A stretch of DNA of 64,000 nucleotides from an uncultured Chloroflexia bacterium (GCA_963721015.1 CAVRHM010000002.1:973324-1037323); one strand, 5' to 3'. Positions 40,398 through 64,000 are shown, counted from the stretch's first letter. Notes: generated by a model from the sequence alone, not told the origin. Translations and numbers: made by a program.

Positions 40398-40568
40398 CAG
40401 CCGGACCTCCTTCGAACACTGCTGAGGCACGGCCGGGACCCCGGTCGCGCGGATGACGGATCGCCACGTCCCTGGAGCTGCTCGGGGCCTCTCTCGACGG
40501 CCGGTCCGCGAGTCGGCGGGTCGGTCGGGTGGGAGGTCGAACGATGGTGGCACCGACGGGTAGCGGAA

Positions 40569-41866
40569 TCAAGTCGGCGAGGTTGCGAATGCGGTCCTCA
40601 GCCGGCGGCCGCGACGTCCTCGAACGCGGCGCCCAGGCCGTCGACCAGGACGTCGACCTCCTCGGGCGTGATGACGAATGACGGCGACAGGTGGATCGCG
40701 TGACCGCGCAGCACGCGCGTGGCGATGCCGTGCCTGATCGCCGCACCGACGACCCGGGCCGGGAGGGTCGGCATCGGCCGCGAGCCGAGCCGCGTCGATG
40801 GCCACGGCCGCCGTCAGGCCCACCGTCCGGATCTCGCCGACGAGCGGCGCGTCGGCCAGCCGGCGCACGGCCGCATCGAACGGGCCCTCCATCGACGCGA
40901 CCCGGCCGACCAGGTCCTCGCCCTCCAGGATGTCGAGGTTGGCCAGCGCGGCGGCGCAGGCCGCGGCATGGCCGCTGTAGGTATAGCCGTGGACGAACAT
41001 CGGTCCGGGCGCGCTGCCGTCCCAGAACGGGCCGGCCACCCGTGGCCCGACGAGCACGCCGCCCAGCGGCTGGTAGCCGGACGTCACGGCCTTGGCGAAG
41101 ATGATCAGGTCCGGCGCGATGTCATAGCGCAGCGATCCCCACATCGACCCCGTCCGACCGAACCCGGTGATGACCTCGTCGGCGATGAGCAGGACGTCGT
41201 GCTCCCGGCACAGCCGCTGGACCTCCGCCCAGTACGACGGTTGCGGCGGGTACACCCCGCCCGCCCCGACGACGGGCTCGCCGATGAACGCCGCGATCTC
41301 GTGCCCCTGCCGCTCGAACAGCGCGCCCAGCGATCTCGGTGTCGTCGAGCCCGACCGTGACGACCTCGTCGATGATCGCCCCGCCGTAGCCGGCCTTGTT
41401 GCCGGGGATGCCGGCCAGCGAGGTGCCCCAGGCGTGCATCCCGTGGTAGCCGTGCTCGCGCGACGACGATGATCCGCTTCTCCGGCTGGCCCTGGACATC
41501 CCAGTAGCGGCGGACGAGCTTGGCCGCCGTGTCGACCCCGTCCGAGCCGCCCGAGCCGAAGAAGACGACCGCATCGTCGATCGGCGCCAGCGCCGACAGG
41601 CGCTCGGCAAGCTGGACGGTGGGTTCGGTCGTGAAGGCGCCGAACGACGAGTACGCCGACAGCCGGGTCAGCTGCTCGGCGACCGCATCGGCGATGGCCT
41701 GCCGTCCATAGCCGACGGCGCAGTACCAGAGCCCCGCGGTCGAGTCGAGGAAGCGCCGGCCGTCGGTGGCCTCCAGCCAGACGCCGTCCCCGGACCGGAA
41801 GACGAGCTCCGCGTCCTTGACCGTGTGCATGTCGGCGAAGCCGTGCCAGAACGAGGTGGTGGTCAT
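40569..41866 (-). pseudogene. class III (omega) aminotransferase, interrupted by >=2 frameshifts
   Basis: Three minus frames carry consecutive pieces: MTTTSFWHGFADMH...YWDVQGQPEKRII | REHGYHGMHAWGTSLAGIPGNKAGYGG...VGLDDTEIAG | YPPQPSYWAEVQRLCREHDVLLIADEVITGFGRTG... Confidence 0.6.
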
Positions 41867-41901
41867 CGGCGGATGGTAGCCGCGAGTGGCAGGATGGTGC
41901 G

Positions 41902-59940: not shown

Positions 59941-62900
59941 CGACGAGGCGGACCTCGCCGCTGAGCGATGAGGTCGAGGATCGGCACCTCGCCGATCGCC
60001 TCGTCGGCGGCCTCGCCGAGCTTGGCCACGGGCCGGGCGTCGTAGCCGACGTCGGCCAGCCGCCGTCGCGTCCCGGGCGTGGCCGCCAGTCGATAGCCCG
60101 CCCCGGCCAGGGCGGCGGCCAGGCGCGGCAGCAGGGCCTTGTCGCGGTCGGCGATGGACAGCAGCGCCAGGGACCCGGCGTCGTCGCCCGACCGCGGCGG
60201 CACGAGGGCCGCGCCGAGGAGCGCCTTGGCCAGGGCCACGCGGGCGTCCTCGTGCAGCCCGATGACCTCGCCGGTCGACTGCATGCCCGGCCCGACCGAG
60301 GGGTCCACACCGCGCAGCTTGGCCGTCGAGAAGGCCGGTGCCTTGACCGCCACGAACGGCGGCGGGGGCAGGAGCCCGCCCTGCCAGCCCAGCTCCGGCA
60401 GGGTCGCGCCCAGGGCGATCCGCACGGCCAGCTCGACCATCGGCACGCCGGTCACCTTGGACATGAACGGCACGGTCCGGGAGGCGCGCGGGTTGACCTC
60501 GATGAGGTAGACGCCGTCGTCGCGGACGATGAACTGGGCGTTGACCAGGCCGCGCGCCCCGAGGGCCAGGACGATCCGCTCCATCGTCGCCACGATGAGG
60601 TCCTGGTCGCCCTCGCTGACCGTCTGTGGCGGGAAGACGCCGACGCTGTCGCCGCTGTGGACACCGGCCCGCTCGACATGCTCCAGGAGGCCCGGGATGA
60701 GGACCCGCTGGCCGTCGCTGACCGCGTCGATGTCGACCTCGACGCCCTCGAGATAGCGGTCGATGCGGACCGGCCGGTCGGGGTCGACGACGGTCGCGGC
60801 CGCGAGCTGGCGGACGAGATCGTCGGGCGAGTAGCAGAAGTCGATGGCCAGCCCGCCGATGACGAACGACGGCCGGACGATGACCGGGTAGCCGATGCGC
60901 TCGGCGAGGGTCAGCGCCTCCTCGACGCTGTGGGCCATGCCGCCGTCCGGCTGCGGGATGCCGAGCCGATCGAGCAGGGCGGAGAACCGGACGCGCTCCT
61001 CGGCCTGGTCGATGGCCTCCAGGTCGCTGCCGAGGAGCGGCACGCCGCCGGCCGCGAGGGGTGCGGCGAGGTTGAGCGGCGTCTGGCCGCCGAACGCGAC
61101 GACGGCCGGGAGCAGGGTCTCGCCGGCCGCGGTCTCGACGTCGATGACGCTCCGCACGCTCTCCGGGTCGAGCGGCTCGAAATACAGCCGCGACGACGCG
61201 TCGAAGTCGGTCGACACGGTCTCCGGGTTGGAGTTGATCATGACCGCCTGCCAGCCGAGCTGGCGTAGCGTGTCGGCCGCCTGGACCGCGCAGTAGTCGA
61301 ACTCGATGCCCTGGCCGATGCGGACCGGTCCACTGCCGATGACGAGGGCGGCCGGCCGGGCGACCGGTGGGGCCTCCGGCGCGGATCCGGCCGCGGCATA
61401 GGTCGCGTAGAAGTAGGGCGTCTCGGCCGCGAACTCCGCCGCGCAGGTGTCGACCATCGCGTAGCCGGGCATGATGCCGAGGGCCAGTCGGGCGGCCCGC
61501 AGCGCGTCTGGGGTCGTGCCGGCCAGCCCGGCCAGCTCCTTGTCGCCGAACCCGGCCCGCTTGACCGTGGCCAGGAGCTCGGCCGCCTCGGGGTCATCCG
61601 GGCGCGGCGGCGAGCCGCTCGCCCATCGCCGCCGTCTCGTGCTCGAGCGCGACGTTGCGGCCCATCTCGGCCGAGGAACCAGGCCGAGATCCCGGTCGCC
61701 TCGCCGACGACCGCCTCCGGCACGCCGCGGCGGAGCAGGCCGAGGAGGCGCCACAGCCGCGAGTCCGACGGCTCCAGGAAGCGGTGCAGGACGATCGGCG
61801 CCGCCGTGCGCTGGGCGAAGCGGGTCGATTCGCACGCCTGGCCGCCCTCGTCGATCCAGCGGATCGGCTCGTCGACCTCGGGGTCGCCGGCGTAGACCGA
61901 CGGCGAGGTAGTCGAAGGTCGGCGTCCAGGACGGATCCTCGGCCAGCGGCCCGACGCCGGCCTGCTCCAGGCCGCGGAGCGCCTTGTTGAGCGCCGAGCC
62001 GAACGTCCGGTCGATGGCCATCACCTCGCCGGTCGCCTTCATCTGGCTGCCCAGCGTGCGGTCGGCCGTCGGGAACTTGTCGAACGGGAAGCGCGGCAGC
62101 TTGACGACGACGTAGTCGAGCGCCGGCTCGAACGCGGCGACGGTCGTGCCGGTCACGACGTTCGGGATCTCGGCCAGCCGACGCCCGACGGCGATCTGGG
62201 CCGCGACCCGGGCGATCGGATAGCCGGTCGCCTTGGACGGCCAGGGCGGACGACCGCGACACGCGCGGGTTGACCTCGATGACCGCGTACTCGGTCGAGT
62301 CGGGTGACAGCGCGAACTGGACGTTGCAGCCGCCCTCCACGCCGAGGGCCCGGATGATGGCCAGGGCCGCGCTGCGCAGTCGCTGGTGGACCGCGTCGGT
62401 CAGGGTCTGGACCGGGGCCACGACGATCGAGTCGCCGGTGTGGACGCCGAGCGGGTCGACGTTCTCCATCGAGCACACCGCGATGCACGTGTCGTCGGCG
62501 TCGCGCATGACCTCGTACTCGATCTCCTGCCAGCCGGTCAGGTAGCGCTCCGACCATGACCTGGCCGATGGGGCTGGCACGCAGCCCTGTCCGGACGATC
62601 TCCCGATAGGCCGCCTCGGTGTCGACGATGCCGCCGCCCGTGCCGCCGAGCGTGTAGGCTGGGCGGACGATGGCCGGCAGGCCGATCTTGGCCAGAGCCG
62701 CCTCGGTCGCGGCGTCGCGTCGGCCTTGGTGGCGCCCTCGACGATCTAGCTCGGGGCGTAGGGCTGGCCGATGCGGTCGAGCAGGTCGCGGAACGCCTCG
62801 CGGTCCTCGGCCATGTGGATGGCCTCGAGCGGCGTGCCGAGGAGCCTGATCGGGTGGCGCTCGAAGACGCCGGCCCGGGCCAGCTGGGTGGCGAGGTTCA

Positions 62901-63190
62901 GGGCCGTCTGGCCGCCCAGGCCGGCGAGCAGGCCCTCCGGTCGCTCCCGGGCGATGACCGCCTCGACCGCCTCGACGGTGAGCGGCTCGAGATAGATCGC
63001 GTCGGCGACCTGGGGGTCGGTCATGATCGTCGCCGGGTTGCTAGTTGACGAGGATCGTCCGGACACCCTCGGCGCGGAGGGCCCGGCATGCCTGGGTCCC
63101 GGCGTAATCGAACTCGGCGGCCTGGCCGATGACGACCGGGCCGCTGCCGAGGATGAGGACCGAGGCCGGCTTCGGCCCGGGCGGGCTCAT
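59652..63190 (-). pseudogene. carB: carbamoyl-phosphate synthase large subunit, many frameshifts
   Basis: N-terminus [35 protein letters not shown] at ~63190. Pieces [10 protein letters not shown]..., second ATP-grasp half (ALVIGSGPVRIGQGIEFDYCAVQA...), MGS-like domain LLSIADRDK... and C-terminus LVVNTPTPRSGAVRDAAEIR spread over >=5 frames. Confidence 0.65.
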
Positions 63191-64000
63191 CGGACGGTCG
63201 ATCCTGCGGTCGCGGCGACGAACCGGTCGAACACGGCGAGCGCGTCGAGCGGTCCGGGCGCGCCTTCCGGGTGGTACTGCACGGTCTCGATGGGCAGCTC
63301 GGCGTGGCGGAGGCCCTCGACCGACCGGTCGTTGAGGTTGAGCTGGCTGACCCGGAACCCGGATGCTGGTCGGCAGCGACTCGCCGACGACCTGGACCTC
63401 GTGGTTCTGGGCGGTCACCTGGACGAGCCCGAGGTCCACGTCCTGGACCGGGTGGTTGGCCCCGTGATGGCCGAACCGCAGCCGGCGGGTGTCGGCGCCG
63501 GCGGCCCGGCCGACGATCTGGTGTCCGAGGCAGATCCCCAGGAGCGGCCGCCCGTCGTCGATGATCGCGCGGGCCAGGGCGACCTGGGCCTCCAGCCGAG
63601 CCGGATCGCCGGGACCGGGCGACAGGATGATCCCGTCGACATCGGAGGACAGGACATCGGCCGCCGAGACCGTGTGCGGGAAGACCCGGACGCGGGCACC
63701 GCGGTGGCGCATCGCCTGGACGATGTTCGACTTCAGGCCGAGGTCGACGATGCCGACCAGCGGGCCGCCTTCGGCCGCTCGCCCGTACTCGGTGATGGCC
63801 GGCGGCGAGACCTGGGACACGAAGTCCTGGTCCTCCCAGCGCTGGACCGCGGCGGGCCGCCGCTCGGGCCGCCGTCCTCGTCGATCGCGCCCGGGGCGGT
63901 GACGATGCCGCGCAGGCAGCCGTTGGCGCGCAGGTGGCGGGCCAGGGCCCGCGTGTCGACGCCGGCGATGGCCGGGATGCCGTCGTCGCGCAGCAGCGCG
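63187..64000 (-). pseudogene. carA: carbamoyl-phosphate synthase small subunit (glutamine amidotransferase), frameshifted; 5' end beyond window
   Basis: GATase motifs LLGICLGHQ and [14 protein letters not shown] in frame ending 63041. Expected C-terminus not in same frame. Gene runs past position 64000. Confidence 0.55.

Follow-up and report, generated by a model that had tools for sequence, protein, structure and literature searches.

The window (the whole 64,000-nucleotide stretch of DNA analyzed here) belongs to a member of the Chloroflexota ("Ca. Limnocylindria"-like) and not, as first supposed, to an actinobacterium, and it consists of a long segment of intact genes followed by a stretch in which nearly all genes are broken by frameshifts (Table 1). 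Pfam searches revealed full-length domains in one frame for the upstream ORFs, and CoxS, CoxL, and CoxM could be aligned end to end with their orthologues with 0 shifts. The sole broken gene of this clean part is a RibD_C (DHFR-like) gene, whose joined translation covered positions 2 to 197 of 197 of the domain. In the downstream stretch, Pfam matches were obtained for sigK with RskA_C, rhomboid, TadE (two genes), Tad, M16 (two genes), ArsR HTH, CopC, CarA, and CarB, in agreement with the gene names proposed originally, while those for the DinB-like and MetE-like genes were weak. Moreover, SRAP, both tadE genes, and the ECF sigma/anti-sigma pair were intact according to both Pfam and orthologue alignment, as the original prediction had stated.

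Table 1. Coordinates of the genes, patches, and extra-base sites discussed in the text
Feature	Position	Strand	Remarks
Clean segment	1..40655		Genes intact save the RibD_C gene; single-frame Viterbi path, full-length Pfam domains, match to L152
RibD_C (DHFR-like) gene	22730..23300	+	Frame changes twice, close to 22,855 and 23,120 (three-frame reading)
Class III aminotransferase	40601..41866	-	3 extra bases: 40,769, 41,334, 41,464
Switch interval	40656..40769		Within the aminotransferase 3' end; last verified-clean base 40,655, first extra base 40,769
Patch A, dense	40769..45535		22 events (4.6 per kb): aminotransferase, DinB-like, MetE-like, sigK, rskA, rhomboid
DinB-superfamily-like gene	41902..42426	+	7 shifts; 173 aa in L001; weak DinB_2/DinB match
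Patch B, sparse	45536..52757		3 events only: 46,978; 47,570; 48,004
Patch C, dense	52758..59963		47 events (6.5 per kb)
Patch D, clean, inside carB	59964..61601	-	1.64 kb, 0 events; chance 3e-4 at 5 per kb
Patch E, dense	61602..64000	-	carB 5' half and carA, 9 events; reaches the window end
Named extra-base sites	40,769; 41,334; 41,464; 53,526; 56,305; 61,602; 63,043

Frameshift-aware protein-to-DNA alignment against intact orthologues revealed 81 frame-breaking events between 40,769 and 63,873 (66 of +1, 9 of -1, and 6 of +2), with ~80 spurious extra bases from ~40.7 kb to the window end. The event rate was 3.5 per kb downstream of 40.7 kb versus 0.05 per kb upstream (P = 3e-33), where both of the only two events fell in the RibD_C gene. 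Up to 40.5 kb, the Viterbi path on codon usage stayed in one frame over long segments; beyond that point, it broke into ~75 short segments and switched frame on the same strand. The abrupt switch announced at ~40.5 kb is real, although it begins slightly later than stated (Table 1), the upstream part is clean save for the DHFR-like gene as claimed, and the shift positions listed at the outset were accurate to tens of bases. Approximately 17 genes were disrupted, with a maximum load of 13 shifts per gene, exceeding the one to five frame changes first proposed. No homopolymer association was found across the events, 7% of which had a homopolymer run of at least 4 within 5 nt versus 8% of random positions, consistent with the original observation that the shifts lie mostly outside homopolymers; the single exception was the G7/C7 tract at 48,003 to 48,009 in tadG. 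At the DNA level, window-private insertions outnumbered deletions 26:1 in three-way alignments, and over the whole carAB block (59,727 to 63,999) a three-way alignment with two relatives, L004 and L005, showed 10 single-base insertions private to the window and 1 deletion. Such insertion-dominated, non-homopolymer errors are not the textbook nanopore error profile, which counts against a long-read consensus artifact. Two further signatures seen at 12 sites in the comparison with the same-species contig L001 were dropped: the creation of CpG was lost in the larger three-way sample, and the apparent tendency not to duplicate a neighboring base did not hold there, as ~40% of insertions extended their neighbor.

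The broken stretch is not uniformly bad; of its five patches, three are dense, one is sparse, and one is clean (dispersion index, 2.2). The sparse patch B holds the intact SRAP, tadE (two), anti-sigma, and ECF sigma genes, and at a rate of 5 per kb, its 7.2 kb would contain three or fewer events with a probability of 2e-12. Only the Viterbi path and the G7 tract support its tadG shift. In patch C, the events were distributed over M16 no. 2 (10), M16 no. 1 (7), the ArsR-domain gene (13), a 145-aa gene (2), CopC (3), the CopD-like gene (10), and the 3' end of CarB (2). Local GC content was rejected as the cause of the patches, because clean upstream stretches also reach 0.74 to 0.755 GC, like the dense ones. 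Nor could the clean patches be ascribed to conservation, which is seen in the carB core but is poor in the anti-sigma and tad genes, which are also clean.

Once the indels were removed, the coding signal of the stretch was whole. The ~18 kb of coding sequence that was aligned contained no premature stops after frame correction, and GC3 was 0.933 downstream versus 0.915 upstream. With three bases skipped, the aminotransferase showed 99.3% amino acid identity to the intact protein (P0001) on L001, and positions 10 to 401 of 403 of the Pfam domain Aminotran_3 were covered across the three junctions. Corrected CarB shared 89% identity with its orthologues, the intact orthologues sharing 87% among themselves, and the corresponding values for M16 no. 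1 were 83% and 83%. Signs of relaxed selection, namely raised nonsynonymous divergence and codon-bias decay, were absent.

Comparison with the orthologous loci of relatives, which had been suggested as a check, was performed with two same-species short-read contigs, L001 (98% identical, spanning 40,538 to 42,949) and L152 (spanning 39,206 to 40,655), as well as with more distant assemblies, and it revealed that the corrected genes match intact orthologues. L152 was 99.24% identical to the window with 0 gaps in 1,450 bp, while the alignment with L001 contained 12 insertions and 1 deletion in the window, i.e., 13 indel events in 2,412 bp, beginning at 40,769 (P = 0.002 for the contrast between the two contigs). 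None of the 12 insertions was present in L001. Substitutions were not raised, at 0.71% in the broken aminotransferase versus 0.76% in the clean L152 overlap. For the densest patch, a same-species reference was sought in metagenome contigs with the ArsR-domain protein and was not found, the best match being 76% identical.

Similar shifts were detected in other assemblies of relatives. The ENA contig_6349 (L002) was clean over the genes broken in the window and carried ~60 mostly +1 shifts in cox/xdhC genes, which are intact in the window, including 6 private single-base insertions within one 940-bp block. Sparse +1 shifts occurred in L003 and in the nanopore MAG L005 (MFD09212), and the Illumina-style MAG L004 had essentially none; L004 and L005 were two close relatives among the matches listed for CarB. 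The thirty JGI short-read contigs used as a control, i.e., the metagenome contigs matched by the corrected ArsR-domain protein, contained three compensating shift pairs only, which we attribute to a leftover wrong-frame stretch of the query. The signature thus recurred in other long-read-type contigs of related Limnocylindria, at unrelated loci, and not in short-read ones. In the rhomboid gene, the window and L003 had 0 frameshift positions in common, and therefore the shifts were not inherited.

The extra bases were placed nonrandomly with respect to codon phase. The wobble base was touched at 14 of 16 well-placed window sites and at 25 of 26 independent L002 sites, or 39 of 42 combined, versus two-thirds expected (P = 7e-5). 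The inserted base was mostly the other strong base (G after C, C after G), 65% of the SNPs between the window and L001 fell at wobble positions, and in three cases in carAB the extra base was the allele found in a relative. Since an assembler is blind to codons, errors of this kind would have to track natural wobble SNPs, and this indirect evidence suggests that they coincide with polymorphic sites. The extra base followed the wobble base 11 times and preceded it 3 times in the window, and the corresponding counts in L002 were 13 and 12. The L002 counts rule out protein-guided frameshift-correction software, which would be expected to edit only at codon boundaries.

Three explanations had been offered without a choice among them, an error-prone assembly segment, genuine pseudogenization, and a chimeric join; the results agree with the first and contradict the other two. 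Recent large-scale pseudogenization over 23 kb or more of this strain's sequence would take the deposited shifts and the disruption of ~17 genes at face value, and the few intact genes of the stretch could be read as selection. The decay of bacterial pseudogenes, however, is deletion-biased, and here the insertion-to-deletion ratios were 12:1 and 26:1. Mixed lesions, deletion bias, and nonsense mutations were not what the stretch contained: its 81 frameshifts are accompanied by 0 nonsense codons, a retained GC3, and no excess protein divergence, the corrected aminotransferase nearly equals the intact gene of the same species, dense and clean patches divide a single gene (carB), and the signature recurs in other long-read contigs, at different loci, but is missing from all short-read contigs. 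True frameshift mutations would also have no reason to adjoin wobble bases, and we regard pseudogenization as very unlikely. Equally unlikely is a chimeric contig, in which two organisms or unrelated assemblies would have been joined at ~40.5 kb, despite the sharp quality change at one point and a best database match of only 91% for CoxL, just upstream, versus a 96% match for the aminotransferase, just downstream. The aminotransferase-coxS-coxL order across the border was identical in L002 and L003, the CoxS protein was 100% identical on L152, which itself overlaps L001 at 40,538 to 40,655 with 4 differences in 118 bp, and GC content and codon usage were alike on either side. Moreover, the nearest relative did not switch across the border, as judged by similarity to L002 and L003, and short-read contigs matched both sides at 98 to 99%, with neither a noncollinear junction nor sides from different populations being found. 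Somewhat more improbable still is that the extra bases are real, products of a very recent, localized, insertion-biased mutation burst in several-kilobase tracts of one Limnocylindria strain; such a burst, caused for example by error-prone repair or replication adding a base beside wobble-type sites, would have inactivated ~17 genes, carAB among them, at a time when no other decay had yet accumulated. Programmed recoding, by which ribosomal frameshifting or transcriptional slippage would restore the frames in vivo, has nothing in its favor beyond the existence of the frameshifts and is effectively excluded by loads of up to 13 shifts per gene at nonrepetitive, nonslippery sites and by the lack of the shifts in same-species and related short-read sequences.

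The frameshifts are thus very probably an assembly artifact, namely consensus errors of a long-read-type metagenome assembly and not mutations, and the genes are almost certainly intact in the organism. Low coverage, which had been named among the possible explanations, is disfavored as the specific cause by the codon-phase pattern. Few long reads past 40.7 kb, for instance at a contig tail, would leave random errors in an unpolished segment with no mixture of strains, and the sudden onset, the persistence of the errors up to the last bases of the window, and their patchiness on a kilobase scale would fit local changes in depth; in addition, the frameshift load of long-read MAGs rises as coverage falls (PMC8103633; PMC12313526). 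Random errors, however, should spread over codon phases, substitutions and deletions should be raised alongside insertions, and a homopolymer bias should appear, none of which was observed, so that we consider this explanation possible, with clearly less than even chances. It is also an artifact, and it competes only with the collapse of strains as the sub-mechanism.

The codon phase of the extra bases points, with somewhat better than even probability, to strains collapsed into one consensus. Reads of at least two co-occurring strains of the same population may have been merged into one contig in these stretches. At many of the sites that vary between the strains, chiefly synonymous wobble positions, both alleles would have been retained next to each other during consensus calling or polishing, each doubly kept site appearing as one +1 "insertion." A single haplotype or identical strains would leave the sequence clean, as in the 40 kb upstream and at 45.5 to 52.7 kb and 59.96 to 61.6 kb, and this would produce both the abrupt borders and the mosaic. 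Strains 98.65% identical have been collapsed by Flye (PMC8302730), indel errors in collapsed assemblies arise from nearby allelic variants (PMC8445201), and uncorrected frameshifts are present in nanopore-only MAGs (PMC8103633; PMC12313526); we found no published account of both alleles of a SNP being retained in tandem by metagenome consensus callers. Two observations run counter to the collapse of strains: the retention of both alleles predicts a ratio of ~1:1 for extra bases after and before the wobble base, unlike the 11:3 of the window, and the clean patches are not obviously matched to more conserved genes, the anti-sigma and tad genes also being clean.

No claim of pseudogenization or genome reduction should rest on this region, and its genes, among them carA, carB, both M16 genes, sigK/rskA, and copC, are best regarded as intact. 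In high-GC soil Chloroflexota, public contigs of long-read MAGs can hold kilobase patches with 4 to 6 spurious insertions per kb beside clean sequence; such patches raise the number of apparent pseudogenes, break up ORFs, and make genomes look less complete than they are. We suggest +1 shifts beside third codon positions as a read-free diagnostic of collapsed strain variation and strain-aware polishing, rather than more coverage, as the remedy.

The errors of the window resemble the indel errors of long-read-only (nanopore/PacBio) assemblies in that single-base indels split ORFs and are absent from short-read assemblies, and similar shifts occur in public Flye-style "contig_N" assemblies of relatives (PMC8103633, PMC12313526, PMC12007338); they differ in being nearly all insertions, outside homopolymers, in sharp kilobase patches, and beside wobble bases. 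Collapsed diploid or strain-oblivious assemblies likewise contain apparent frameshifts at places where read alignment is perturbed by neighboring allelic variants (PMC8445201), the difference being that the two presumed haplotypes of the window are deduced from codon phase. With Mycobacterium leprae and recently host-restricted bacteria, the window shares many neighboring frameshifted genes; however, such reductive genomes show deletions, nonsense codons, and codon-bias decay genome-wide, whereas the window is insertion-dominated, with no stops and an intact codon bias, within a sharply bounded region.

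The switch from intact to frameshifted genes at ∼40.5 kb, claimed in the original prediction, was confirmed with a codon model trained on long, high-GC3 open reading frames (ORFs). The seven-state Viterbi path over the window consisted of long coding segments in one frame each before 40.5 kb and of ∼75 short segments with frame switches on the same strand after it. Joining the downstream segments yielded clean conceptual proteins with Pfam domains spanning the junctions: Aminotran_3 was matched at positions 10 to 401 of 403 over three junctions, and sigma-70 r2/r4 with RskA_C, rhomboid, two TadE plus Tad, two M16 peptidases, and one ArsR HTH were also found. 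CopC, CarA, and CarB profiles were matched via orthologues, while DinB and the MetE N terminus gave weak profile matches for orthologues. Upstream, the ORFs were read in a single frame with full-length domains, and no shift was detected in CoxS, CoxL, and CoxM aligned to intact references. GC content stayed at 70 to 76% across the whole window and showed no discontinuity at 40.5 kb. Homologues of the window proteins bear the names Chloroflexota or Candidatus Limnocylindria, which places the contig in a soil Chloroflexota rather than an actinobacterium. As had been foreseen, a RibD_C (DHFR-like) gene with two frame changes was the only gene disrupted within the clean 40 kb; the joined translation of this gene spans profile positions 2 to 197 of 197, and it could be a lone case of the same artifact or a real pseudogene.

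A search with the corrected aminotransferase retrieved an intact 421-amino-acid protein on L001, a 2.4-kb JGI short-read contig of the same species (96% identity to the query, which contained X residues), and intact orthologues also occur on L002 and L003, long contigs of relatives (ENA, Flye-style "contig_N" names). L004, a short-read metagenome-assembled genome (MAG), and L005, the nanopore MAG MFD09212.bin.2.194, were among the matches listed in a CarB-based scan, and CoxS as a query led to another JGI short-read contig, L152, which encodes a protein of 100% identity. Together, L001 to L005 and L152 cover 25 to 64 kb of the window, and these orthologous loci, to which the original prediction had pointed for comparison, proved collinear with it, also through the switch at 40.5 kb.

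A custom protein-to-DNA aligner permitting frameshifts, applied to all genes, identified 81 events that break a reading frame from position 40,769 to 63,873 (66 "+1," 9 "-1," and 6 "+2"), corresponding to 3.5 shifts/kb downstream versus 0.05/kb upstream (p = 3e-33), and the corrected frames of all aligned genes contained no premature stops. For instance, the aminotransferase was 99.3% identical to L001 once exactly three extra bases (40,769, 41,334, and 41,464) were skipped. The frameshifts expected in individual genes were confirmed in the sequence, but the range of one to five per gene was too narrow, since the ArsR-domain gene had as many as 13, and the second M16 peptidase and the CopD-like gene had 10 each. 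The genes named as intact were indeed so, with zero shifts each in SRAP, ECF sigma, and anti-sigma, and both tadE genes being single-frame ORFs by codon model and Pfam. Overall, the events formed a mosaic (dispersion index, 2.2) of dense, sparse, and clean patches.

Features of the window and density of frame-breaking events along it
Feature	Position	Strand	Events/kb	Observation
CoxSML/xanthine-dehydrogenase-type cluster	15,600-21,500			CoxG and XdhC with YHS domain
RibD_C gene	22,730-23,300	+		Frame changes near 22,855 and near 23,120
CoxSML/xanthine-dehydrogenase-type cluster	35,500-40,400			MoCF_biosynth gene
Dense patch	40.77-45.5 kb		4.6
Sparse patch	45.5-52.7 kb		∼0.4
tadE-tadE-tadG block	47,660-50,160	-		Flanked by PfkB-like and anti-sigma genes
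G7/C7 tract in tadG	48,003-48,009			Shift in codon model only
Anti-sigma factor C terminus	50,350-50,700	-		Long low-complexity Pro/Ser/Thr/Gly tail (PSPSPS..., SGSGSG...)
Stretch without stable coding frame	51,751-52,437			687 nt
Dense patch	52.76-59.96 kb		6.5
Clean patch inside carB	59.96-61.6 kb		0
Dense patch	61.6 kb to window end		4

The stretch without a stable frame shows weak similarity to a 166-amino-acid hypothetical gene of L002 (49% identity, six shifts) and may be either a gene corrupted past reading or noncoding. The two Cox clusters are paralogous, with small subunits of ∼68% mutual identity. The tad block is absent from the corresponding position in L002 and L003, and similarity in L005 is weak.

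Considering the indel spectrum and the reference sequences, we regard the frameshifted region as very probably an assembly artifact. Natural pseudogene decay in bacteria is biased to deletions, whereas the window carries 12 insertions and 1 deletion relative to the 98%-identical L001, and 26 window-private non-3n insertions against 1 deletion in three-way DNA alignments. Moreover, nonsense codons are absent, GC3 is kept (0.933 downstream, 0.915 upstream), corrected proteins diverge from orthologues no more than intact orthologues do from each other, and substitution divergence from same-species references is 0.71% in the broken aminotransferase and 0.76% in the clean overlap, all of which makes genuine pseudogenization very unlikely. 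A chimeric join was also considered. L152 matches 39,206 to 40,655 at 99.24% identity with zero gaps, and L001 differs from the window by 13 indel events, the first at 40,769. Since L152 is gap-free to 40,655 and L001 extends from the other side, the switch is bracketed by same-species references of 98 to 99% identity, which is evidence against a chimera of two organisms. Chimerism and recoding are each very unlikely. The two contigs, from different JGI samples, overlap by 118 bp (40,538 to 40,655) with four differences. Their ends fall in the intergenic region adjoining the quality switch and may reflect strain variation interrupting short-read assembly.

The same lesions recurred in other assemblies. 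L002 (ERZ25039597 contig_6349), from a related species, is a mirror image of the window: sigK, rhomboid, and aminotransferase, which are broken in the window, are free of shifts in this contig, and the cox, AAA, and xdhC genes (∼13,800 to 21,300 of the locus), which are intact in the window, contain ∼60 shifts, mostly +1. In a three-way alignment of 940 bp, six single-base insertions were private to L002 and one to L003. Sparse +1 shifts were detected in L003 (ERZ25039464 contig_4700; near 6,470, 7,647, and 8,121 to 8,759) and L005 (near 10,457, 13,640, and 14,907), where single shifts break SRAP, rhomboid, carB, and CopD-like genes and thus explain their fragmented gene calls. Essentially zero shifts were found in L004, the short-read control, and only three compensating pairs in thirty JGI short-read contigs, most likely due to a residual wrong-frame stretch in the query. 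Therefore, the lesion type tracks assembly kind rather than lineage or gene, and the main value of the finding is this data-quality lesson.

Consistent with the original prediction, the extra bases showed no association with homopolymers, while the exception proposed in tadG was called by the codon model alone. Their composition approximates that of the genome, the inserted base typically being the other strong base. At well-placed, unambiguous sites, the extra base touched the third codon position in 14/16 cases in the window and 25/26 in L002 (39/42 combined versus 2/3 expected; p = 7e-5), lying after versus before the wobble base at ratios of 11:3 and 13:12, respectively. Because an assembler is blind to reading frame, such errors must follow a feature with three-base periodicity, the obvious candidate being natural SNPs. 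Of the window-L001 differences, 65% fall at wobble positions. Plain low coverage is a possible contributor, but alone it does not predict codon phasing. The simplest model, which we favor with moderate confidence as the origin of the artifact, is that reads of co-occurring strains were collapsed to one contig and that the consensus or polisher kept the two alleles at a SNP site one after the other. Dense patches would then mark where strains differ, and clean patches where they are identical or one strain alone is present. Such collapse would account for the insertion bias, missing homopolymer link, lack of surplus substitutions, patchiness, and sharp borders. Comparable behavior has been described: strains of 98.65% identity were collapsed by Flye (PMC8302730), indel errors in collapsed assemblies arise from allelic variants close together (PMC8445201), and frameshift errors persist in nanopore-only MAGs (PMC8103633; PMC12313526).
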